Positions 506 to 21,023 of a stretch of 64,000 nucleotides of DNA are shown in pieces. Within the stretch, counting starts at the first letter, position 1, and every line of letters starts with the position of its first letter. The position numbers and the translations under genes are program-made. Source of the DNA: Escherichia coli (GTDB taxonomy: Bacteria > Pseudomonadota > Gammaproteobacteria > Enterobacterales > Enterobacteriaceae); the NCBI RefSeq assembly GCF_045037415.1, contig NZ_CP173438.1; one strand, written 5' to 3'. The notes under the pieces are model-generated. The model was not told the DNA's origin, ran no database searches, and saw only the letters and a list, made by a program, of their open reading frames with translations.

Positions 506-3376
506 TTATATTTTTTCCAGCGCGGTGAGTATTTTCTCCGGTGTGAAATGCCATTCGCGTAACCAGATGCCGCAGGCATCGTGAATTGCGGTAGCAATCG
601 CCGGAGCTGCGCCATTTACACCGATTTCCGAGATCGATTTCGCCCCGAATGGGCCGACTTTATCGTCGCTCGGCACCAGCACAGCGCGGAAATCACGCGG
701 AATGTCACCAATTTTCGGTGCGCCGTAACTGCGTAAATCACGCGTTAACGGGTGACCTTCGGCGTCATAAATGATCTCTTCGCTCATACTGTGGCCGATA
801 GCACGCAGGGTGGCACCGTAGATTTGTCCCAACGCTAACTCTGGATTGACCGGTGTACCGCAGTCCAGCAAGGCGTAGAATTTATCCAGGCGGATTTCAC
901 CCGTACGCGTGTTGACGGCAACTTCAGCGAAGTTTGCGCCATACGGGAAGGCGAAATCAGGTGTGATATAACTGCCAGTTCCCACCAGTGAACCAAAGCC
1001 GGTGCCGGTTTCGCCTTTATGGGCTATCTCTCCGAAACTAACTTCGCCTTTCTTGCCGCGAACGACGCCCGGCGTTGCTAGTTGAACATCTGCCACTGGC
1101 TCACCCAATATTTGCGCGCCGTGGAACAGGATTTTCTCCCGCAGATTTTCCGCTGCCAAACGCGCAGCGTTACCCGAGAAGCAAGTACCGGACGAGGCAT
1201 ATGCGCCTTTATCAAACAGTGCATGATCGGTATCACCAGAGATAACATGCACGTCCTGCGGTGGGCAGTGCAGCACTTCTGCTGCCAGTTTGGTCACCAC
1301 AGTATCCAGACCAGTACCAATATCCGCACCACCGGAATGAACGATAAAGGTGCCATCCGATTCCAGTTTGATCATGCAGTTAGCCTGATCGATATCCGGG
1401 ATACCCGATTTCTGCATGATAATGGCGACGCCGCGACCGATGTGCCAGTCACCATTTTGCGGTTTTGGTGAAGACCATTGGATCATCTCGCGACCCTGAC
1501 GCAGGATCTCTTCCAGTGCGCAGCTGGCGGCGGAAGGAACGGAGGTCGGCGCTTTACCTTCACCGATTGCACCGAGAATTTTCAGCTCTTGCCCTTCGTG
1601 TACCCGGTTACGTTCGATAATTTCCAGTTGGTCGATCTGTAACTGTTCAGCCAGTTCCGCTAATGCCATGGTGATAGCGAAGTTACCTTTCGGTGCGCCA
1701 TAACCCTGATAAGCACCATTTGGGCAAATGTTGCTGTAGTAGGTGGTGACCTGAAAATCGACGTTATCGCATGGATATAACGGCAGCGACAGCGCCGGTC
1801 CGTTACACGGTACGGTGAGTGAGTGGTTACCGTAAGGACCCGTGTTGGCGCGGAAATCCATCTTCACTGCCGTCAGGCGACCATCTTTTTTCGCGCCCAG
1901 TTTGACGGTGACTTTCGCGACGTGACGAGAGGTGTTAGCAATAAACTCTTCTTCACGGGTGTAGCGGAAAAGTACCGGACGCCCGGTCACGCAGGTTGCC
2001 CAGGCGCACACTTCTTCCAGCAGGATGTCCTGTTTGGAACCAAAACCGCCGCCAACTCGCTCTTTAATGACATGAACTTTATGCTGTTTCATGCCCACGA
2101 GGCGCGCGACCTGGCGGCGTAAGTGCCATGGTACCTGGGTGGAGGCGTGGATCACCAGACGATCGCCGTCCATACGGGTAAAGCAGATATGTGTTTCAGT
2201 CGGGCACTGCTGTGCCTGCGTTGAATTATAGGTTCGCTCAATGATCACATCGGCATCGGCAAAGCCTTTGTCCATATCGCCAATATGACCATGAATACTG
2301 GCGGCGATATTTTTGCGTGGGCGAGAACCGATCGGGAAGTTGATGATCATATGCTCGCCGCGCTGGGCTGCATGGCTGTTATCATCTTCCAGAGTATCTG
2401 GCGCACCAGCAACATACACCACCGGTTCATCGTGCACGACAGGCGCATCTTCCGCCATTGCCTCGTCAATCGACATTACCGGCTTAAGCACTTCATATTC
2501 AACGTCGATGAGCTTCAGTGCTTCGAGCGCAATGTCTTCACTTTCGGCTACTACCGCAGCAACGCGATCGCCGACGTGACGCATTTTCTTGCCGAACATT
2601 CGGCGGTCAAGCGGTGACGGTTCCGGTGCGCTCTGACCACCCGGGGTATAGTAAATATCCGGGCAATTCAGGTGAGTAATAACGTGAACGACGCCCGGTA
2701 AGGCTTCAGCTTTGCTGACATCCAGATGAGTAATCAGTGCGTGAGCGTGTGGGCTACGTAACATTTTAATGACGCAGGCGTCAGCCGTTACGCGATCTTC
2801 AACATAGCAGGGTTTCGCCTGCACCATTTTCGCGGCATCAGTTTTAGGATAATGCTTGCCAATGACTTCAAGGTCGTCACGGAAAGTCGGAGCGATATCA
2901 ATGGTGGCCTGCGGATTATTTTTACGTGCAACCGCCAGTTCAATGACCTGATAGTATTGCTGCCAGCCAGCATCGCGGCTAAACAGACCTGAGAGTGCGT
3001 CGTCGATCTCTTCGCGGGTAGGTGCGTCGATGCGATCGAGAAGATCGGTGATAATCAGAGCCGCAGCTGGATCGTTATAACCAGACTGCACCACGCCAAC
3101 ATCAACCATGGCCTGTTGAACCAGACTTAACTCATTCCATTTGCCCAGAGATTCTGCGGTACGAATATCTGCCTTCTCTAACTGTGCGGCGATAAGCAAG
3201 GACGCGTTAACGATATTACCGTTAAAGATAATTGCGTCAGAACCGGCAAACCCAAAGCCATCATCACTGTTGCGTACAGAGTGCATTCCCATGTTAAACA
3301 ACAGCTTTTGCACGTTTTCGCCTGGATTAACGGTTAGCTCCTGAGGCGCGCCATTTAAAGTAAAGTGGATGATCAT
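506..3376 (-). CDS. xdhD: Molybdenum hydroxylase large subunit fused to a degenerate (Cys-less) ferredoxin-like N-terminal region; putative selenium-dependent purine hydroxylase XdhD (YgfN)
   Basis: 956-aa ORF, full-length match to my memory of E. coli XdhD. It is paralogous to XdhA in this window (aldehyde oxidase/xanthine dehydrogenase Mo-binding domains) and overlaps ygfM by 4 nt. Confidence 0.95.
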   Translation of the reverse strand: MIIHFTLNGAPQELTVNPGENVQKLLFNMGMHSVRNSDDGFGFAGSDAIIFNGNIVNASLLIAAQLEKADIRTAESLGKWNELSLVQQAMVDVGVVQSGYNDPAAALIITDLLDRIDAPTREEIDDALSGLFSRDAGWQQYYQVIELAVARKNNPQATIDIAPTFRDDLEVIGKHYPKTDAAKMVQAKPCYVEDRVTADACVIKMLRSPHAHALITHLDVSKAEALPGVVHVITHLNCPDIYYTPGGQSAPEPSPLDRRMFGKKMRHVGDRVAAVVAESEDIALEALKLIDVEYEVLKPVMSIDEAMAEDAPVVHDEPVVYVAGAPDTLEDDNSHAAQRGEHMIINFPIGSRPRKNIAASIHGHIGDMDKGFADADVIIERTYNSTQAQQCPTETHICFTRMDGDRLVIHASTQVPWHLRRQVARLVGMKQHKVHVIKERVGGGFGSKQDILLEEVCAWATCVTGRPVLFRYTREEEFIANTSRHVAKVTVKLGAKKDGRLTAVKMDFRANTGPYGNHSLTVPCNGPALSLPLYPCDNVDFQVTTYYSNICPNGAYQGYGAPKGNFAITMALAELAEQLQIDQLEIIERNRVHEGQELKILGAIGEGKAPTSVPSAASCALEEILRQGREMIQWSSPKPQNGDWHIGRGVAIIMQKSGIPDIDQANCMIKLESDGTFIVHSGGADIGTGLDTVVTKLAAEVLHCPPQDVHVISGDTDHALFDKGAYASSGTCFSGNAARLAAENLREKILFHGAQILGEPVADVQLATPGVVRGKKGEVSFGEIAHKGETGTGFGSLVGTGSYITPDFAFPYGANFAEVAVNTRTGEIRLDKFYALLDCGTPVNPELALGQIYGATLRAIGHSMSEEIIYDAEGHPLTRDLRSYGAPKIGDIPRDFRAVLVPSDDKVGPFGAKSISEIGVNGAAPAIATAIHDACGIWLREWHFTPEKILTALEKI

Positions 3377-4152
3377 ACGGCTTCCTCCCCAGCCTGTTGG
3401 CAGTCGGCATACAGGTCGGCTACCAGAACTCCCGTGATATAGCGTTTATAGGCCACGCTGCCCCGCAAATCTTCCTGCGGGAAAATGGCGTTGGCGACAG
3501 CCTGTTCCAGTGCATTGCCTTCCAGATTTTGAGTTTCAACATCATGCAGACGCAGTGCTTTACTGGCGACGCCATCCAGCGCAATTCGCATACCGTCGTG
3601 GTCTGTTATTGCAACGGCTGCCGTCACGACGGTTAAACCTGCCTGAGAACGGCTAATTTTGCGAGTCGCACAGGTGCGATACGGATCTTTAATGATAATT
3701 TCGGTTAACAGGCGATCGCATGGGCAGGCCAGGTAGTCCTCGATTGACAGCGTTTCGCCGTTGCCAAAAACCAGTTCAGCATCCAGTGCCAGCAGGACGG
3801 GAAGCAGCACTGACTCTTCTTGCCGGGCGGCAATTTCACCACCAATGGTCGACTGATTACGAACATGGCGAGAGTAGACAAAACCGAGAGCTTCCCGCAG
3901 TGCTGCAGGAATAAATCGCGCATCACGCAGTGGCTGCAAGCGAGACATTGCGCCAATTCGTAGTGCACCGTTATCCCAGTCAATCCAGTCCAGCTCCAGA
4001 TCCTGCAAGGAAATGGCAATCTTTTTATCGGTACGGGTTGGTGTAGCGTTGAGTTTGCTGCCCCCGGCGAACCAGACGGCTTCATCCTGGTAGCGGCGCT
4101 TCAGTTCCAGCGCCTGTTCGACAGAGTCGGGTCTGAAAAATTGTTCAATCAT
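3373..4152 (-). CDS. ygfM: FAD-binding subunit of a molybdenum hydroxylase (CO dehydrogenase flavoprotein-like) YgfM
   Basis: 259-aa ORF resembling XdhB/CoxM FAD-binding subunits (AGGSKL..., GGEIA motifs). It is translationally coupled to xdhD. Confidence 0.9.
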   Translation of the reverse strand: MIEQFFRPDSVEQALELKRRYQDEAVWFAGGSKLNATPTRTDKKIAISLQDLELDWIDWDNGALRIGAMSRLQPLRDARFIPAALREALGFVYSRHVRNQSTIGGEIAARQEESVLLPVLLALDAELVFGNGETLSIEDYLACPCDRLLTEIIIKDPYRTCATRKISRSQAGLTVVTAAVAITDHDGMRIALDGVASKALRLHDVETQNLEGNALEQAVANAIFPQEDLRGSVAYKRYITGVLVADLYADCQQAGEEAV

Positions 4153-4202: not shown

Positions 4203-5531
4203 TTATGCCAGCGCATCCATCCGACGCCACATACTGGCAGCGGCTTTTCTGGCTTGCGCATAAATGGAATCGCAATCGAAGTTAAACTGACGGTCTTCAT
4301 AGACCATCACACCATTGACCATCACGCTGTGAACGCTACCTGAGCCCATACCGAAAGCGATATGCCCGGCGATATTGTCTGCCAGCAGCGGCGTCGGCGA
4401 GTTGTAATCGCAAATGGTTAAATCGGCTTTGTAACCGGCTTCCAGAAGCCCAAATTTCGCGCCAAAGTTGCGGCTCATCAGTTCGTTGCCGTTAGCCAGT
4501 GCTTTGGCAAAACTGTCAGGCCACAGCGGGCCACCCGCATCGCGATGTTTAAAGAAGGCAAATTTCATCTCTTCAAACATGTCCGAACCAATGCCGTCCG
4601 TTCCCAACGCCAGATTGCGGATGTCGCTAAGGTGATGGTTGTAGCCGACATGGTTGTTCATGTTTGAACGGGCGTTATGCACCAGGAACGCATCGCGCTG
4701 ATTGAGTAGGACGATGTCATCTTTCGACAGGTACAGCCCATGAGCGACCAGCGTTTTGCTGTCGATGAGATCGAATTGCGCAAGTCGTGCCAGCAGGTCT
4801 TTGCCGTACCAATGGTGACTGTAGGAAACGTCGTAAAGGTCTTCCGCAACGTGAATATGCAAACCACGACCTGTGCTTTTCACGGCTTCACGCAGCATCT
4901 CCAGACCGGCATCCGGCACGGTAAACGGCGCGTGAGCGCCGATATGTGCTTCCACCAGATACGGCTCGGTTGCTGCTTTCTTCGCCTCATCAATCTGACG
5001 GGTGAAGCGGATGTTTTCTTCTACACCTTCCTGCAACTCTTTGATGCCGTTGTTACGGTCAGTAGTTTCAAAACAGGTCATCGCGCGCAGGCCAACTTTT
5101 AAAAATGCGTTGCGCAATGTGGAGAGCGACCCGTCGATATACGCCGGAGAGGCATGGTGATCGATAACCGATGTACATCCGCTCTTAATCGCTTCCAGGG
5201 AACAAATCAGTCCGCTGTAATAGAGCGACTCTTCATCAAGAGCGCGATCGAGCCGCCACCAGAGATTTTTCAGCGTTGAGATGAAATCCGGGCAGGGGGC
5301 GATGTTTGCCATAATTCCGCGGGAAAGCCCCGAGTAAAAATGGTTGTGCGAGCAGACAATTCCCGGCATCACAATCCGACCATGCATCTCTTTGTAGCTG
5401 GCATCGGGGTAGCGTTGCGTCAGGGCATCGCCGATAGCGACAATCACATCATTTTCGATGGCGATATCAACGCCTTCCTGCACTTTCGCCGGGTGTAACT
5501 GCACTGCGGTGACATTCTTCAGAATCAACAT
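4203..5531 (-). CDS. ssnA: Amidohydrolase-superfamily protein SsnA (aminohydrolase/deaminase-like)
   Basis: 442-aa ORF with the HxH metal motif (CSHNHFYSG) typical of the guanine/cytosine-deaminase-like amidohydrolase fold. Recognised as E. coli SsnA. Its start codon lies 3 nt after the ygfK stop. Confidence 0.95.
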   Translation of the reverse strand: MLILKNVTAVQLHPAKVQEGVDIAIENDVIVAIGDALTQRYPDASYKEMHGRIVMPGIVCSHNHFYSGLSRGIMANIAPCPDFISTLKNLWWRLDRALDEESLYYSGLICSLEAIKSGCTSVIDHHASPAYIDGSLSTLRNAFLKVGLRAMTCFETTDRNNGIKELQEGVEENIRFTRQIDEAKKAATEPYLVEAHIGAHAPFTVPDAGLEMLREAVKSTGRGLHIHVAEDLYDVSYSHHWYGKDLLARLAQFDLIDSKTLVAHGLYLSKDDIVLLNQRDAFLVHNARSNMNNHVGYNHHLSDIRNLALGTDGIGSDMFEEMKFAFFKHRDAGGPLWPDSFAKALANGNELMSRNFGAKFGLLEAGYKADLTICDYNSPTPLLADNIAGHIAFGMGSGSVHSVMVNGVMVYEDRQFNFDCDSIYAQARKAAASMWRRMDALA

Positions 5532-5533
5532 GA

Positions 5534-8500
5534 TTACACCTCCACGCGGCCCAGCAGATAATGATGATGCTGGTGGACATGGCTAATGATGCGGCACATA
5601 TCGTTCAGCTCCGGTGGTACGTTGTTGAACTGACCTTCGCTGTCGATGTTTAACACCCAGCTTTGGTTATTCAGACGTACGCGTACCCGGCAATCTTCCA
5701 CAAGGAAGCCTGGGTTACTGCTGTTATCAAAGTCTTGCGACAGGCTGAAGACGGTGATTTTGTCTTTGTACGGTTTACCGTTCCACGGGCAGAATTGGGC
5801 GCAGTTGCCGCATTCGTTGCAGTAGGCATCGAGATGCAGCGTCTGGAAACGGTTCTGGAAGCCAGGAACCGCAATGGATACGTTGGCGCGGTTCGGGCAG
5901 ACATCCACACACTTGCTGCAAACGTAGTTACATTCAAGGCAGCGTGCGGCTTCCTGTGCGACAAACGCGTCACGATCGTCACTGTTCACCAGAGTGACAG
6001 AGATATCGCCTTTACGTTGATAGATTTCCGCCGGATTTACGTTGTTCCAGTATTTATCGTTCTGGTGGGAACGGATATTTTCCCGACTAAGGATGGTATC
6101 GGTCGCCCGACGCGCGGTTCCGACAGCAGCGACAATGGAGGATGGTCCGCGCTGTACGTCGCCGATCATAAAGACGTCAGTCAGACGCGTTTCGCCATTA
6201 TGGTCGACGTCTGGCCAGCCGTTTTTGTCCAGCGGCACGCCCATCGCATTCAGGGCTTCAGTATCCTGCTGTTCACCAATGGCGGTGATCAGACTGTCCA
6301 CATGCAGTGTTACTGTTTCGTTGGTTTCAACCGGACGGCGACGACCTTTCTCATCAGGTTCGCCAAGCGACATAACGCGCAAGGTTAAGGTGCCATCAGC
6401 ATCGAAACGTTCCGGATTATTCAGAAAACGGAACTCCACGCCGTCGTGCAACGCTTCTTCATACTCTTCGCGCCATGCGGGCATTTCTTGCAGTGAACGA
6501 CGGTAAACGACCGTTGCTTTTTCTACGCCTGGAACGCGTAACGCCGCACGAGCGCAGTCCATTGCGGTGTTACCCGCCCCGACAACGACCACATGTTTGC
6601 CCAGCTTGAGCGCGGTGCCCTTGTTGTATTCACGCAGGAAAGGGAGTGATTTCCAGACATTTTGGTTGTCGCCCGCCAGTTTCACACCGCTATTTTTATC
6701 AGTGCCGGTGGCAATCAGAACATAGTGGAAGCCCTGATTTTTTAACTGTTCAACGGTCAAATCGGGTGAGCAACCGTACTCAAATTTCACGCCGTGAGCG
6801 GCAACAAAATCGATATCGTGCTGAATTAACTCTGCAGGAATACGGAACTGAGGAATGATATTTTTCACCACGCCGCCCGCATTGGCTTCGCGTTCAAACA
6901 GCGTGACCGGATGGCCCGCTCTGGCAAGGAAGTAACCTGCGGCCAGACCCGCCGGACCTGCACCAATCACGGCTACCGGATGGCGTGAACCGGAACCGGC
7001 TGGTTTGTGCCAGCGTTGCTTATATTCATCCCAACCTTTTTCCAGGGCGACTTTTTTCAGTTCGCGGATATTCAGCGCACTGTCGTAATCCAGGCGGGTA
7101 CAGTTGTATTGGCACTGGTGATCGCAAATATGACCGGTAATGGCGGGCAGGGCGTTGCGTTGATAGATGAGTTCCAGCGCGTCGGCATAGCGGTGTTCGC
7201 CAAGCAGACGGATGTATTCCGGAATATCTTGCTTGATAGCGCAGGCAGTAACACAGGGGGCAACGTAGCAATCGGTCAGCGGCAGGTCTTCAGCCACTTC
7301 AATACGCTCTTCTGGCTTCCAGTGTTTCTGGGTGTATTCCATGGTTAACGCGTCTGCTGCCAGTCTGTTCAGTCGTTCGACGTCAACGTGGTTAAGCTCC
7401 CAGGCGTCGGAGCCTTCCAGCTCGCGCATGCAGGCACTTAAGCGCAGATAGCCGCCAGGTTTCAGCAGGTCGGTTGCCATAGTAATAGGGCGAATACCAG
7501 TATCAAAAATATCGCGGATAGTCAGCTGACTGGCACCACCGGAATAAGAAATGGGCAGTTTGCCGTCAAAGGCGCGAGAGAGAACTGCTGCAACGTTGAT
7601 GGAGAGCGGGAACAGCGCACGGCCTGACATATACATCTCTTCACCGGGCAGTGCGCCTTTATTGTTGATGGTGCCGAGAGTGTTAGTCAGTTTTACGCCA
7701 AAGCCGAGTGATTTTTCTTTTGCCAGTGCCATCAGGCGTTCCAGCATTTCCAGTGCTTGCGTCAGCTTGAGGTCGTGATCAAATGACTCTTCTTTTAAGC
7801 CGATGTAACCGAAACCGCAGACATCGAGGATCTCACGAACACGCGCGTACCCCAGTAAGGTCGGGTTGAGTTTCACAAAGGTGTTGAGTCCTTTTTCTTC
7901 CAGCATGTAGCGGCAAATGGCTTCGATTTCATGCGGAGGACAGCCGTGCATGGTGGAGAGGGTAACACCTTGTACCATGCTGGTGGGGATGCGAGCGGGT
8001 AAGGCTTGCAAGCTTTCGCGTTTTTCCTGCAATCCGTGGCGGGCTAAAAATGCCTCATCCTGGAGTAGCTTATTAAGTGCATCGCGGTATTGAGCGAATT
8101 TCGGATGGTCAGATGCGTCCATCATATTGTCGATGAACTGCTGCATCGGCGGTTGCTTAATACCTTCGAGGTTGTAACCGACGCTCATATTAAAGATGAA
8201 CGATTTACCGGAATCAGAAGGCTGGAACATCGCTTCGAGAAGGTGCAGGGCAAACCAGGCTTTGAGGTATTCATCCCAGGCTTTAAGCAGGGTAAATTCG
8301 GTAGACCATTCGGTGTTAAAGCACTCGTCTTCGGCATCGATACAGGGCTTTTCCAGCTCCAGACGGTCAAGAATTTGGACGGTTTTTAGTTCGATGAAGC
8401 GTCCGCCAGTCAGCCAGGAAGTGACAATATTTTGCGCGAGTTGCGTGTGCGGGCCAGCGGCAGGGCCGACGGGAGTGGCACAGGTTTCACCGAAGACGCT

Positions 8501-8632
8501 AACAGTTTTACTTTTTACGGGTGAGTAAAACTGTTGCTCGGGAATACCAAAGATTGAGCGTTGTTGTTGGTATTCATCAAATATGCGCGTCAAAAGTTCC
8601 TCAAACGGAATGGGACGCATAATATCCCCCAT
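5534..8632 (-). CDS. ygfK: Large Fe-S flavoprotein YgfK: N-terminal DPD/PyrD-like barrel + GltD/PreT-like NAD(P)H/FAD module + C-terminal 2x[4Fe-4S] ferredoxin
   Basis: 1032-aa ORF. It contains dinucleotide folds VAVIGAGPAGLAAG and VVVVGAGNTAMD, the GltD-like Cys cluster CYVAPCVTAC...CDHQCQYNC, and the C-terminal motifs CSKCVDVCP and CNECGNCAQFCP. Recognised as E. coli YgfK. Confidence 0.95.
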   Translation of the reverse strand: MGDIMRPIPFEELLTRIFDEYQQQRSIFGIPEQQFYSPVKSKTVSVFGETCATPVGPAAGPHTQLAQNIVTSWLTGGRFIELKTVQILDRLELEKPCIDAEDECFNTEWSTEFTLLKAWDEYLKAWFALHLLEAMFQPSDSGKSFIFNMSVGYNLEGIKQPPMQQFIDNMMDASDHPKFAQYRDALNKLLQDEAFLARHGLQEKRESLQALPARIPTSMVQGVTLSTMHGCPPHEIEAICRYMLEEKGLNTFVKLNPTLLGYARVREILDVCGFGYIGLKEESFDHDLKLTQALEMLERLMALAKEKSLGFGVKLTNTLGTINNKGALPGEEMYMSGRALFPLSINVAAVLSRAFDGKLPISYSGGASQLTIRDIFDTGIRPITMATDLLKPGGYLRLSACMRELEGSDAWELNHVDVERLNRLAADALTMEYTQKHWKPEERIEVAEDLPLTDCYVAPCVTACAIKQDIPEYIRLLGEHRYADALELIYQRNALPAITGHICDHQCQYNCTRLDYDSALNIRELKKVALEKGWDEYKQRWHKPAGSGSRHPVAVIGAGPAGLAAGYFLARAGHPVTLFEREANAGGVVKNIIPQFRIPAELIQHDIDFVAAHGVKFEYGCSPDLTVEQLKNQGFHYVLIATGTDKNSGVKLAGDNQNVWKSLPFLREYNKGTALKLGKHVVVVGAGNTAMDCARAALRVPGVEKATVVYRRSLQEMPAWREEYEEALHDGVEFRFLNNPERFDADGTLTLRVMSLGEPDEKGRRRPVETNETVTLHVDSLITAIGEQQDTEALNAMGVPLDKNGWPDVDHNGETRLTDVFMIGDVQRGPSSIVAAVGTARRATDTILSRENIRSHQNDKYWNNVNPAEIYQRKGDISVTLVNSDDRDAFVAQEAARCLECNYVCSKCVDVCPNRANVSIAVPGFQNRFQTLHLDAYCNECGNCAQFCPWNGKPYKDKITVFSLSQDFDNSSNPGFLVEDCRVRVRLNNQSWVLNIDSEGQFNNVPPELNDMCRIISHVHQHHHYLLGRVEV

Positions 8633-8953: not shown

Positions 8954-9532
8954 CTAAATTTCAGTATACCTTTTCTTCGCTGTAATAAAGTCGTCCGGAG
9001 TATCAATATCTAAAATTATTTCTGCATTTTCTATTTCGACGGAATAATGTTCTCCCATAAGGAGTGCCTGACGCATATTGGTGACATTGGGGCGCTGGAT
9101 TGCCTGCATCAGGCATGGTTTTGACACTAAAATCGGATGGCCGGGGATGCCATTATGGAGTGGCAGTATTGCGCCATCATTTCGTAACGACCAGATTTTT
9201 CTAAAAATATCGATGGTGAGGGTTGGCATATCTCCGTGGGTGAGAAAACAATGTTCTGTTTGCACCGCGGGTACTGCGGCCTTTACTGATGTCAGTAAAC
9301 CCTGCGCATAATCTGGGTTGTGGATAATAGTGATATTGCTCTGGTTCGCATAACGTTCGTGCAGTTCATTACCACGATAGCCGGTGACTAAAATAATTCG
9401 GCTACAAAACTGCAACGCATTTTTGATACTTGTATCAAGAATTGTTCCCTGTTGCCAGGGTAACATCATTTTCCATTGCCCCATTCTTGATGATAATCCT
9501 GCGGCGGTAATTATACAGTCGATGGCTGACAT
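8954..9532 (-). CDS. mocA: Molybdenum cofactor cytidylyltransferase MocA (YgfJ)
   Basis: 192-aa ORF with a MobA-like nucleotidyltransferase N-terminus (IITAAGLSSRMG). Recognised as E. coli MocA, which makes the MCD cofactor used by xanthine-dehydrogenase-family enzymes. Confidence 0.93.
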   Translation of the reverse strand: MSAIDCIITAAGLSSRMGQWKMMLPWQQGTILDTSIKNALQFCSRIILVTGYRGNELHERYANQSNITIIHNPDYAQGLLTSVKAAVPAVQTEHCFLTHGDMPTLTIDIFRKIWSLRNDGAILPLHNGIPGHPILVSKPCLMQAIQRPNVTNMRQALLMGEHYSVEIENAEIILDIDTPDDFITAKKRYTEI

Positions 9533-9635
9533 AGTGATTCCATTATTTACAGGAGCTAATAACGCCTGATAATTGCGTTACTTCCTGATGGATTACGTTG
9601 AGGGTAATTTATCCCAGAGAGGTCCATAAAGACGC

Positions 9636-10406
9636 GTGAAAAGTATAATTGACCCATCGGCATTATTCATTGATTTAGGCGCGCAGAAACGTCCCACTGT
9701 GATTTCTATTGTTGGTGCTGGGGGGAAAACCAGCTTGCTTTTTTGGCTGGCAGAACTGTTCCAGGCGAGTGGCAGGCGTGTATTAATCACTACGACGACA
9801 CATATGTTTATGCCAACATCTCACTGGCCCGTGGTTTTCTGTCGTGATCCCGCCATGCTTCCTCATGCGTCTTTTATATCCCCCATTTCATTTTGTTTTC
9901 ACTGCTGGAAAGCGAACCAGGGAAAAGTGCAGGGATTTACGCCAGAAGCGATTGATGCACTGGTACAACGACCAGAGTGTGACGTAATTCTCATTGAGGC
10001 AGATGGCTCGCGTGGAATGCCGTTAAAAGCGCCTGATGAGCACGAACCTTGCATACCTAAAAGCAGTTGCTGCGTGATTGCTGTGATGGGAGGACATATT
10101 TTGGGTGCGAAAGTGAGCACAGAAAATGTCCATCGCTGGTCGCAGTTTGCTGATATTACTGGGTTAACACCTGATGCACCCTTGCAACTGAGCGATCTCG
10201 TTGCGCTGGTTCGCCACCCTCAGGGCGCGTTTAAAAACGTACCGCAAGGTTGTCGGCGAGTCTGGTTCATTAACCGTTTTTCTCAATGTGAGAATGCGAT
10301 TGCGCAAAGCGAGCTCCTTCAACCGCTGCAACAACACAACGTAGAGGCAATCTGGCTGGGCGATATACAAGAACATCCTGCAATCGCGCGCAGATTTGTG
10401 AATTAG
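9636..10406 (+). CDS. yqeC: Probable selenium-dependent hydroxylase accessory protein YqeC (P-loop NTPase)
   Basis: 256-aa ORF with a GTG start and Walker A motif VGAGGKTSLL. Recognised as E. coli YqeC. Confidence 0.9.
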   Translation: MKSIIDPSALFIDLGAQKRPTVISIVGAGGKTSLLFWLAELFQASGRRVLITTTTHMFMPTSHWPVVFCRDPAMLPHASFISPISFCFHCWKANQGKVQGFTPEAIDALVQRPECDVILIEADGSRGMPLKAPDEHEPCIPKSSCCVIAVMGGHILGAKVSTENVHRWSQFADITGLTPDAPLQLSDLVALVRHPQGAFKNVPQGCRRVWFINRFSQCENAIAQSELLQPLQQHNVEAIWLGDIQEHPAIARRFVN

Positions 10407-10453
10407 CGGCCCGGGTATTCCGGGTTACTGAAAGGATATCCATTGAGGTTGGT

Positions 10454-12079
10454 ATGAATATTTTCACAGAGGCTGCAAAACTCGAAGAGCAAAATTGTCC
10501 GTTTGCGATGGCGCAAATTGTTGATAGCCGAGGCTCAACCCCCCGCCATTCTGCACAAATGTTAGTGCGCGCCGATGGTTCTATCGTCGGTACAATTGGT
10601 GGCGGAATGGTTGAGCGGAAGGTGATTGAAGAGTCGCTTCAGGCATTGCAGGAACGTAAGCCGCGATTATTCCATGGACGTATGGCTCGTAACGGTGCGG
10701 ATGCTGTCGGGTCAGATTGTGGAGGTGCAATGTCAGTATTTATCAGCGTCCATGGTATGCGTCCACGTCTGGTGTTGATTGGTGCGGGGCATGTCAACCG
10801 GGCGATAGCCCAGAGTGCGGCGCTATTAGGATTTGATATCGCCGTTGCCGATATTTATCGCGAAAGCCTCAATCCTGAACTATTCCCACCATCAACCACG
10901 CTTCTCCATGCTGAGTCGTTTGGTGCGGCAGTGGAAGCACTGGATATTCGCCCTGATAATTTTGTCCTGATTGCCACGAATAATCAGGATCGTGAAGCCC
11001 TCGACAAACTCATTGAACAACCCATTGCATGGCTGGGGTTGCTGGCAAGTCGCCGCAAGGTTCAGCTTTTCCTACACCAATTGCGTGAGAAAGGCGTGGC
11101 TGAAGAACATATTGCCCGTTTACATGCGCCCGTTGGTTACAACATAGGTGCGGAAACGCCGCAGGAGATCGCCATCAGCGTGCTGGCAGAAATATTACAG
11201 GTGAAAAATAACGCGCCGGGTGGGCTGATGATGAAGCCTTCTCATCCTTCCGGACACCAGCTGGTGGTGATTCGCGGTGCGGGGGATATCGCCAGTGGTG
11301 TAGCGCTACGTCTGTATCATGCGGGTTTTAAAGTGATCATGTTGGAAGTGGAAAAACCGACAGTGATTCGTTGTACCGTGGCGTTTGCCCAGGCCGTGTT
11401 CGATGGCGAAATGACGGTCGAAGGCGTCACCGCCCGCCTGGCAACCAGCTCTGCGGAAGCGATGAAACTTACCGAACGCGGATTTATCCCTGTGATGGTA
11501 GATCCCACCTGTTCATTGCTTGATGAACTGAAACCGCTTTGCGTGGTGGACGCTATTCTGGCGAAACAGAATTTGGGAACGCGGGCAGATATGGCACCAG
11601 TAACAATCGCGCTTGGGCCGGGCTTTACTGCAGGGAAGGATTGTCATGCGGTAATTGAAACAAATCGCGGGCACTGGCTCGGTCAGGTGATTTACTCAGG
11701 TTGTGCGCAGGAGAATACCGGTGTTCCCGGCAATATTATGGGGCATACCACCCGACGAGTGATCCGCGCTCCTGCTGCAGGCATTATGCGATCCAACGTG
11801 AAATTAGGCGATCTGGTGAAAGAGGGCGATGTCATTGCCTGGATTGGTGAGCATGAAATTAAAGCACCGTTGACGGGGATGGTGCGTGGCTTGTTGAACG
11901 ACGGACTGGCCGTGGTCGGTGGTTTTAAAATTGGTGATATCGATCCTCGTGGTGAAACGGCTGATTTCACCAGCGTTTCTGATAAAGCCCGGGCGATTGG
12001 CGGCGGCGTACTTGAGGCGTTAATGATGTTGATGCATCAGGGCGTTAAAGCGACAAAAGAAGTGCTGGAAGTGGCTTAA
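10454..12079 (+). CDS. yqeB: Selenium-dependent molybdenum hydroxylase system protein YqeB (XdhC/CoxI-like maturation domain + C-terminal domain)
   Basis: 541-aa ORF. The N-terminal half resembles the XdhC/CoxI Moco-insertion chaperone family with a Rossmann-like segment (LVLIGAGHV). Recognised as E. coli YqeB. Confidence 0.9.
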   Translation: MNIFTEAAKLEEQNCPFAMAQIVDSRGSTPRHSAQMLVRADGSIVGTIGGGMVERKVIEESLQALQERKPRLFHGRMARNGADAVGSDCGGAMSVFISVHGMRPRLVLIGAGHVNRAIAQSAALLGFDIAVADIYRESLNPELFPPSTTLLHAESFGAAVEALDIRPDNFVLIATNNQDREALDKLIEQPIAWLGLLASRRKVQLFLHQLREKGVAEEHIARLHAPVGYNIGAETPQEIAISVLAEILQVKNNAPGGLMMKPSHPSGHQLVVIRGAGDIASGVALRLYHAGFKVIMLEVEKPTVIRCTVAFAQAVFDGEMTVEGVTARLATSSAEAMKLTERGFIPVMVDPTCSLLDELKPLCVVDAILAKQNLGTRADMAPVTIALGPGFTAGKDCHAVIETNRGHWLGQVIYSGCAQENTGVPGNIMGHTTRRVIRAPAAGIMRSNVKLGDLVKEGDVIAWIGEHEIKAPLTGMVRGLLNDGLAVVGGFKIGDIDPRGETADFTSVSDKARAIGGGVLEALMMLMHQGVKATKEVLEVA

Positions 12080-20543: not shown

Positions 20544-21023
20544 TTACTTTGTTTTCTCGCAATCCAGAACTGTATTTACAATCATCTGATACCCCGTGCA
20601 GCGACAAAGATTTCCCGCCAGTCCACGACGAATTTCCGTAATGGTTAATGGCTTCTCGCGTGGTTTCGCCAGCATTGCCGTGGTAGCCATAATCAGGCCC
20701 GGCGTACAAAACCCGCATTGCACTGCACCAGATTTCGCATAAGCCAGTTGGACATGAGAAAGTTTACCGCCTTTCGCTTCACCTTCCAGCGTGCGGATCT
20801 CTTTTCCTTCAGCCCAGGCCGCAAGGAATAAGCAACTGTCTATCGCAGTGCCGTCGACCAGCACCGTACAGGCACCACATTCACCCACGCAGCACCCTTG
20901 TTTGACACTTAGCAGTCCTTGTTCGCGGAGTAATTCCGAGAGCGGCGTGCCTGGTGCGGCGTGAAGCTGAAAAGGCATCCCGTTAATGGTGCATTCGATG
21001 GTAATTGTTTCGCTGTGATTCAT
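20544..21023 (-). CDS. xdhC: Xanthine dehydrogenase [2Fe-2S] subunit XdhC
   Basis: 159-aa ORF with both canonical cluster motifs: [11 protein letters not shown]...C and QCGFCTPG...CRCTGY. Confidence 0.96.

Follow-up and report, generated by a model that had tools for sequence, protein, structure and literature searches.

The N-terminal [2Fe-2S]-type module of the Escherichia coli urate reductase subunit XdhD is conserved without any of its cluster-ligand cysteines

The xdhD gene (ygfN) of Escherichia coli lies at positions 506..3376, on the minus strand, of a 64,000-nucleotide stretch of contig NZ_CP173438.1 (assembly GCF_045037415.1), hereafter called the window, where the list of open reading frames and their translations gives a coding sequence of 956 amino acids (aa). 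By its published activity the product is the molybdenum (Mo) subunit of a urate reductase, which converts urate to 2,8-dioxopurine in the anaerobic urate pathway, and its partner YgfM is predicted from sequence to be the subunit that binds flavin adenine dinucleotide (FAD). We found that the N-terminal region of XdhD, which corresponds to the two-[2Fe-2S] module of the xanthine oxidase family, carries none of the eight cysteines that ligate the clusters. The first ~150 residues are very probably a cluster-less copy of that module, kept as a conserved scaffold. Our whole proposal, to which we assign a probability of about 55%, joins this scaffold to entry of electrons at the YgfM flavin and to a cluster-free route from the flavin to the Mo centre.

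For comparison we used XdhC, a small subunit of the canonical kind with two [2Fe-2S] clusters, which belongs to XdhABC, is encoded in the same window (20544..21023, minus strand; Pfam Fer2 and Fer2_2; NF007387, 338 bits) and has 11 cysteines in 159 aa, with all eight ligands present. BLASTP aligned XdhD residues 1-188 with XdhC (E=2e-21, 31% identity over 147 residues). The first cysteine of XdhD is C190, and residues 1-189 (2810-3376, minus strand) are free of cysteine. An earlier note on this DNA had claimed that positions 2813-3376, which are exactly residues 1-188, align with XdhC and contain no cysteine; both parts of the claim held, and the three XdhD/XdhC motif pairings quoted there were reproduced by BLASTP. 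Pfam Fer2_2 matched residues 73-145 with 47.4 bits (gathering cut-off 30.3), and NCBIfam models of the XdhC type spanned residues 3-147.

The family's ligand pattern is C-x4-C-x2-C...C for the FAD-proximal cluster (FeS II), followed by C-x2-C...C-x-C for the Mo-proximal cluster (FeS I), and XdhD keeps 0/8 of these cysteines (C1 to C8). The beta-grasp (plant-ferredoxin-like) subdomain, residues 1-72 (3161..3376, on the minus strand like all parts of xdhD), aligns with XdhC from residue 1 and is the FeS II site in relatives, but is ligand-free here. In its degenerate loop S37-D47, SDDGFGFAGSD (3236..3268), XdhC ligands C44, C49 and C52 (C1 to C3) are replaced by D38, A44 and D47, and the fourth, C64, falls in the alignment column of S59 (3200..3202). 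The helical [2Fe-2S]-binding-type subdomain (Fer2_2), residues 73-150 (2927..3160), is the FeS I site in relatives and is likewise ligand-free. Here QSGYNDPA (3065..3088) stands in place of QCGxCTPG, with S98 and N101 for C103 and C106 of XdhC (C5 and C6), and LFSRDAGW (2963..2986) in place of CRCTGY, with S133 and D135 for C140 and C142 (C7 and C8). This loss is not a matter of chance, because most relatives carry 8/8 cysteines: 36/43 of those with the module fused at the N-terminus among the best 150 cluster representatives, and 89/120 in a second set of relatives. With zero cysteines at the eight ligand positions, in E. coli and in 79/79 orthologues, the canonical Mo-FeS I-FeS II-FAD wire cannot be built inside XdhD-YgfM, as the earlier note had concluded. 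We know of no Fe-S cluster with zero cysteine ligands, and the module therefore presumably binds none.

Although the ligands are gone, the fold appears to have been retained. A single-sequence AlphaFold model of residues 1-188 was poor (predicted local distance difference test, pLDDT, 48), and a model of residues 1-170 based on a 22-row alignment was used; a word-index search with the XdhD N-terminus had yielded mostly frameshifted fragments, useful as alignment rows only. The AlphaFold2 model had a pLDDT of 84.9 and a predicted template-modelling score of 0.81, with strands at residues 2-7, 10-15, 48-51 and 54-57 and helices at 85-93, 102-115, 121-127 and 135-153. Low confidence was confined to the three loops that hold the clusters in relatives (31-50, 91-100 and 131-140) and to the C-terminal tail. 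The top Foldseek matches of the model were complete two-cluster small subunits, namely CoxS (1n60_A), HcrC (1sb3_C/1rm6_C) and NdhS (3hrd_D), with E ~1e-12, TM scores of 0.80-0.83 and ~155 aligned residues. The model thus indicates that the small-subunit fold, with its beta-grasp and four-helix subdomains, is kept, and the ferredoxin-like fold assumed in the earlier note withstood this test.

The residues that replaced the cysteines are themselves conserved. Among 79 full-length orthologues, a cysteine at any ligand column was found in 0/79. The ligand columns read DADSSNSD in 61/79 and DADSSNHD in 13/79, with minor variants in the others; D38 and D47 were invariant (79/79), and the motifs SVRnSDDgfGfaGsD, NASLL, vQSGynDpA and GlFsRDaGyQQ were nearly so. 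When XdhD was compared with its Escherichia, Citrobacter and Klebsiella orthologues, the ratio of nonsynonymous to synonymous substitution rates (dN/dS) was 0.03-0.07 for the N-terminal domain versus 0.016-0.046 for the remainder, and replacements were two- to threefold more numerous in the FeS II-like half than in the rest. An xdhD match was present in 5177/5426 complete E. coli genomes (95%), and a scan of one genome per species found a cysteine-less N-terminus encoded in at least 413 loci (species). The best 80 of these loci (L001-L080), on which all locus counts for the gammaproteobacterial clade are based, belong to Enterobacterales, Vibrionales, Aeromonas, Shewanella and one Rhodocyclaceae metagenome-assembled genome. 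The module, replacement residues included, is under strong purifying selection and shows no decay. The idea that a fossil domain was kept as a scaffold therefore stands as far as the scaffold is concerned, since the domain is folded and strongly constrained, but "fossil" understates the case, because the replacement residues are conserved and, as shown below, convergent. These data also refute the possibility that XdhD is a decaying or inactive paralogue, or that its cysteine-less N-terminus is an annotation or sequencing artefact, for which the missing cysteines alone would speak and against which stand the low dN/dS, the distribution over at least 413 species, the intact Mo site and the published activity.

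The rest of the complex has the features expected of the family. Pfam placed Fer2_2, Ald_Xan_dh_C, MoCoBD_1 and MoCoBD_2 on XdhD, which accordingly consists of the cluster-less FeS-like module, an a/b hammerhead and two Mo-cofactor-binding domains; the Mo domains and the hammerhead scored 244.8, 230.1 and 107 bits, all above cut-off. At full length the protein exceeded the cut-off of the NCBIfam model of the YgfN/XdhD type (TIGR03313, 2116.7 bits, cut-off 1101.9). Its sequence matches in the PDB were 4-hydroxybenzoyl-CoA reductase (4-HBCR), MOP, CODH and xanthine dehydrogenase (XDH). The active site is intact: E917 in KSISEIG, the invariant glutamate of the family (626..628), the glutamine of STQVP and the GGGFG.KQ motif were invariant across 45 aligned family members. 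The Mo domains, the active-site residues, the fold of the small subunit and the FAD partner thus all place XdhD in the xanthine oxidase family. It departs from the family's general architecture in one feature, the two [2Fe-2S] clusters (PMC3958847).

The FAD partner is YgfM (259 aa; 3373..4152, minus strand), whose stop codon overlaps the xdhD start (ATGA). It matched Pfam FAD_binding_5 (73.1 bits) and TIGR03312 (487.6 bits), and the FAD motifs GGsKlN and RNQxTxGGE were conserved in 80 orthologues. No four-cysteine motif was found in these 80 orthologues; the only two conserved cysteines, C161 and C251, are specific to the gammaproteobacterial clade, and YgfM would therefore lack the extra cluster of 4-HBCR. 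A FAD-subunit gene adjoins relatives with eight ligand cysteines (L087, L090, L082), with four (L081, L091) and with none (the window, L083, L086, L088), and lies 2 kb away in one locus of the last kind (L089). We considered whether the FAD subunit decayed after cluster loss and rejected this, as FAD_binding_5 scores were 44-77 bits in the 8-, 4- and 0-cysteine states alike. The FAD partner is older than the cluster loss and has survived it, without decay, in at least three lineages. YgfM is also the fastest-diverging of the four operon proteins, with 41-83% identity to E. coli in most of the 80 loci, versus 71-92% for XdhD, 66-87% for SsnA and 61-90% for YgfK; odd tblastn values for one locus (L001) stem from an indel-rich assembly.

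Comparison across the subfamily, supplemented by a neighbour-joining tree, suggested that the clusters were lost in steps and repeatedly. All eight cysteines are present in close relatives, among them Holophaga-type proteins (P0004/P0376), which are 56% identical in the Mo part, and a Caldilinea protein (P0430). The P0376 gene belongs to a urate-type cluster, which includes a FAD-subunit gene that overlaps it, genes resembling ygfK, ssnA and hyuA, and also yqeB/C and selD. In a Krumholzibacteria clade (P0006, P0392-P0406) the columns read D-G-D-x followed by CCCC, that is, FeS II alone is lost, and P0449 shows the same FeS II-only loss separately from that clade. In a Chloroflexi group of 16 clusters all eight cysteines are gone, and the columns read D[TS]D[QHN]SNDE apart from minor variants. 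In the Mo part, proteins of this group share 66-69% identity with Chloroflexi proteins that keep all eight cysteines, versus ~40% with E. coli XdhD; in the N-terminal domain the corresponding values are mostly 54-59% (47-50% for P0496) and 34-37%. Because the cysteine-less Chloroflexi proteins thus resemble the 8-cysteine Chloroflexi proteins more than E. coli XdhD, the alignments indicate that the eight cysteines were lost in this group independently of the E. coli lineage. A domain swap as the source of the shared replacements was rejected, as the N-terminal domains, too, are nearer those of the 8-cysteine Chloroflexi proteins than that of E. coli.

The independent losses led to the same residues. 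The Chloroflexi and E. coli forms share the changes C1 to D, C3 to D, C5 to S and C6 to N, and the cysteine-to-aspartate changes at FeS II also occur in the Krumholzibacteria and Vescimonas lineages. Changes from cysteine to aspartate or asparagine need two nucleotide changes each, and therefore mutational proximity would not explain the convergence. Among the relatives in both ligand-column sets, no lineage was seen in which FeS I was lost and FeS II kept. The pattern suggests that the FAD-proximal cluster was lost first and that the cluster-less state evolved more than once in the subfamily; the Krumholzibacteria 4-cysteine lineage looks like an evolutionary intermediate. The question of the earlier note whether the loss is universal thus receives a divided answer: all 79 orthologues are cysteine-free at the ligand positions, whereas across the subfamily the loss is clade-specific and recurrent. 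A further cysteine-less form, that of Vescimonas fastidiosa (Bacillota), is 51% identical to XdhD, has the pattern DADNSNID and represents a 90% cluster of 1913 member sequences. The Mo parts of the E. coli, Vescimonas and Holophaga proteins are equidistant (52-57%), the two cysteine-less N-terminal domains are 49% alike, and the tree paired Holophaga with Vescimonas at 88%; this group may have lost the clusters once or twice.

How electrons reach the Mo centre has to be considered in the light of what is known of the enzyme. Two 2025 studies assigned the gene cluster to anaerobic urate degradation (PMC12507026; bioRxiv 10.1101/2025.04.24.650524). E. coli XdhD with a co-purified ~30 kDa band, putatively YgfM, converted urate to 2,8-dioxopurine with NADH (PMC12507026; commentary PMC12990295), and the next step, reduction of 2,8-dioxopurine, was assigned to YgfK (PMC12507026; bioRxiv 10.1101/2025.04.24.650524). 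Li et al. modelled XdhD-YgfM as "resembling R. capsulatus XDH (1JRO)", with NAD(P)H electrons entering via the FAD of YgfM (PMC12507026), and the missing ligands contradict the electron path that this model implies. They are not mentioned in either study, the supplement, the commentary or a 2026 family review, and full-text literature searches, whose scope did not extend to subscription-only papers and database entries, found no earlier mention of the missing cysteines. The enzyme and its reaction are known already. What the searchable literature does not describe is that the architecture is cluster-less, that it is conserved, and that it arose convergently and in steps.

In the reading that we prefer, the XdhD module would serve structurally, as a bridge that keeps YgfM attached to the Mo subunit. 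Carboxylates, in the pair D38/D47 and in D135, would supply the negative charge that the clusters contribute in relatives: the pocket is built to stabilise a [2Fe-2S](Cys)4 centre, whose net charge is negative, and the convergent aspartate pairs would replace that charge. NADH electrons would enter at the YgfM flavin and would reach the Mo-pterin without clusters, either by long-range tunnelling or through a rearranged FAD-to-Mo geometry. We regard the YgfM flavin as the likeliest entry, because NADH use tracks YgfM and the FAD-less Clostridium sporogenes enzyme does not use NAD(P)H; entry at the FAD also agrees with the activity published in vitro, and with the FAD subunit having been kept in every lineage. 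The specific combination of entry at this flavin with cluster-free transfer to the Mo-pterin is nevertheless tentative, and we give it somewhat less than an even chance.

Several points weigh against this reading. In bovine XDH the Mo-FeS I, FeS I-FeS II and FeS II-flavin distances are ~15, ~12 and ~8 Å, and at the flavin-to-pterin gap of ~25 Å in this geometry the Moser-Dutton rule gives ~0.01 per second. By rough estimate, this rate would be enough for the published assay, but 100-1000 times too slow for a growth-relevant urate flux. That assay was an endpoint measurement by liquid chromatography-mass spectrometry with 10 µM enzyme and 1 mM substrates, without kinetics (PMC12507026). Finally, that XdhD-YgfM holds no cluster is a conclusion from sequence. 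The flavin and the pterin may be closer than in 1JRO, or the physiological donor may be a different one.

It is possible, although we consider it doubtful, that the Fe-S wire is dispensable or even harmful, has been discarded repeatedly for that reason, and that the Mo centre is served by a mechanism undescribed for the xanthine oxidase family. Candidate mechanisms, which share in that doubt, are direct flavin-to-pterin transfer in a rearranged complex, Mo reduction by a second active-site substrate, and a non-cysteine cofactor in the remodelled sites. If this were true, no Mo hydroxylase before XdhD-YgfM would have been shown to achieve physiological turnover in the complete absence of Fe-S clusters.

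A different physiological donor is unlikely, in our judgement, to be an external Fe-S protein that reduces the Mo centre and leaves YgfM without a role as the entry point. The earlier note had named YgfK, a flavoprotein with Fe-S-cluster domains (5534..8632, minus strand; TIGR03315; Pfam Fer4_20 and Pyr_redox_2, with weak 4Fe-4S dicluster matches below cut-off), as the partner through which electrons might pass; YgfS, YgfT and AegA, which are linked to formate-dependent urate use, would be further candidates. YgfK is encoded on the strand and in the apparent operon of xdhD, AegA and YgfT are named "formate-dependent uric acid utilization protein" by NCBIfam, and the kinetic estimate given above for the cluster-free route also speaks for an external donor. 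However, YgfK has a substrate of its own, 2,8-dioxopurine, and XdhD with only the ~30 kDa band was active with NADH and no YgfK (PMC12507026). The gene context points in the same direction: ygfM lies directly upstream of xdhD in 80/80 loci, whereas ygfK and ssnA are found within 10 kb in 67/80, ygfK being missing from the ±10 kb in the other 13/80 and from the Vescimonas and Chloroflexi cysteine-less loci, where the FAD-subunit gene is always present. The retained fold moreover suggests that the dead module still fills the site where a donor cluster would have to come near the pterin. The proposal of YgfK as the donor is thus not supported.

Alternatively, the Mo centre could be insulated, with two substrates reducing and re-oxidising one active site in a ping-pong reaction that needs no wire. 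The FAD subunit would then serve only occasional slow redox priming, or stability, and the repeated loss of the clusters would be adaptive. Such a scheme would suit a loss that is recurrent, convergent and begins with the FAD-proximal cluster. The Clostridium sporogenes enzyme DOPDH works in both directions (bioRxiv 10.1101/2025.04.24.650524), and canonical xdh genes are close at hand, directly before ygfM-xdhD in Vescimonas (operon order xdhA-, xdhC-, xdhB-, ygfM- and xdhD-like) and 17 kb from xdhD in the E. coli window (xdhABC). DOPDH, however, is selective for urate/2,8-dioxopurine, and an XDH mutant cannot use xanthine (bioRxiv 10.1101/2025.04.24.650524), and therefore xanthine is unlikely to be the co-substrate. 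As growth on urate also requires net reduction, we hold the ping-pong scheme to be quite improbable.

The least probable of the explanations that call for a functional enzyme, and one to which we give little credence, is that the former cluster sites hold another cofactor or metal through aspartate, serine, asparagine or histidine, or that new cysteines form a cluster elsewhere. In its favour, both conservation and convergence are seen in the replacement residues (D, D / S, N, D or E), and cysteines invariant in the gammaproteobacterial clade do exist (C190, C238, C551, C667 and C732 of XdhD and the two of YgfM). Yet these cysteines are dispersed, make up no CxxC-type motif and are not shared by the other cysteine-less lineages (Vescimonas, L088), and the AlphaFold2 model is least confident at the former cluster loops, as expected after loss of a cofactor; that no cluster with zero cysteine ligands is known to us argues likewise. 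A common replacement cluster built from compensating cysteines was rejected, as no motif is common to the cysteine-less lineages. Taken individually, C238 of XdhD also occurs in Vescimonas, while C190, C551, C667 and C732 are absent from other family members.

Known systems offer partial parallels to a cluster-less scaffold with FAD entry. E. coli XdhABC and R. capsulatus XDH (1JRO) resemble XdhD-YgfM in domain set, catalytic glutamate and glutamine, and N-terminal fold. The differences are that XdhD has neither the eight ligands nor the internal wire, that its FeS-type module and its Mo part form one polypeptide, and that the enzyme works reductively, at C6 of urate. The 8-cysteine P0376 protein has the same arrangement as XdhD, a FAD-subunit gene overlapping a fused FeS-Mo gene, with all cysteines kept; it and P0430 presumably keep a normal wire and are natural controls for the cysteine-less forms. 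4-HBCR has an extra [4Fe-4S] cluster in its FAD subunit, which feeds in low-potential electrons. Among PDB sequences, this reductive dehydroxylase (Thauera aromatica; 1RM6/1SB3) matches XdhD best (E=6.6e-80), but YgfM is without the four-cysteine motif and XdhD-YgfM would be without any cluster. In Desulfovibrio gigas aldehyde oxidoreductase (MOP; 1SIJ/1VLB) the FeS module is fused N-terminally to the Mo part, as in XdhD; there the FAD module was dropped and both clusters kept, the reverse of XdhD and a precedent for dropping one redox module. C. sporogenes DOPDH (XdhAC), a selenium-dependent Mo hydroxylase, shares the reaction and the pathway of XdhD. It reportedly contains Fe-S-binding domains, lacks a FAD domain or subunit and does not use NAD(P)H; methyl viologen was used in its assay (bioRxiv 10.1101/2025.04.24.650524).

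XdhD is thus an abundant enzyme of known function that has kept its FAD subunit and has no cluster ligands. Its gene is present in 95% of the complete E. coli genomes, and the cysteine-less type extends to at least 413 species, common gut bacteria among them. XdhD-YgfM catalyses the first step of urate degradation by gut bacteria and is being engineered into probiotics against hyperuricaemia, so that its true electron donor and rate limit are of practical value. The series of orthologues with eight, four and no cysteines, with convergent replacements, is a natural experiment in which a redox module was retired and its fold kept. The "Fe-S" part of the current NCBIfam/RefSeq names, [quoted passage not shown] for XdhD and "2Fe-2S iron-sulfur cluster-binding protein" for N-terminal fragments, is not supported for the cysteine-less clade.

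The gene context of xdhD agrees with the urate pathway. Positions 506-4152 are 100% identical to the annotated xdhD-ygfM of several E. coli strains. Upstream on the same strand follow ygfM, the amidohydrolase gene ssnA (4203..5531, minus strand), which lies between ygfK and ygfM, and ygfK, and next to these are ygfJ/mocA (minus strand), yqeC and yqeB (both plus strand; 8954..12079 together), whose products belong to Mo-cofactor cytidylylation and selenium-cofactor maturation (TIGR03310, TIGR03172 and TIGR03309, all above cut-off). These genes adjoin the operon, and a dependence on selenium has been shown for the C. sporogenes enzyme only. Pfam and NCBIfam matches further identified carbamate kinase, hydantoinase (hyuA), ygeY, ygeX and ygeW among the adjoining genes, which confirmed the urate-pathway context (ygfK, ssnA, hyuA, ygeW, ygeY, ygeX) in the window.

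Several details of other loci were also recorded. On a Vescimonas-type gut contig (L086:5814-12880), genes on one strand encode xdhA-like (713 aa), xdhC-like FeS (160 aa) and xdhB-like FAD (289 aa) proteins, and a ygfM-like (230 aa) and a cysteine-less xdhD-like protein (959 aa) follow directly after this canonical set; the ygfM-like protein is a shortened one, to which CO_deh_flav_C gave no match. One Chloroflexi locus (L089:8601-9995) encodes, immediately upstream of its cysteine-less xdhD-like gene, a 464-aa protein without a Pfam match; the FAD-subunit gene has been shifted ~2 kb farther upstream, and genes of the luciferase family (F420-type) are found in the neighbourhood. The gene of the Krumholzibacteria 4-cysteine form (L091:4906-10004) follows two others, one PydA-like (DHO_dh and 4Fe-4S domains) and one for an amidohydrolase, and there is an overlapping gene for a FAD subunit of 281 aa. 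A frameshift within the final ~18 codons of ygfM, with read-through into xdhD, gives rise to a 1215-aa YgfM-XdhD fusion (P0243), for which Logan assemblies supply 43 member sequences. The fusion may be a genuine allele or the result of misassembly.

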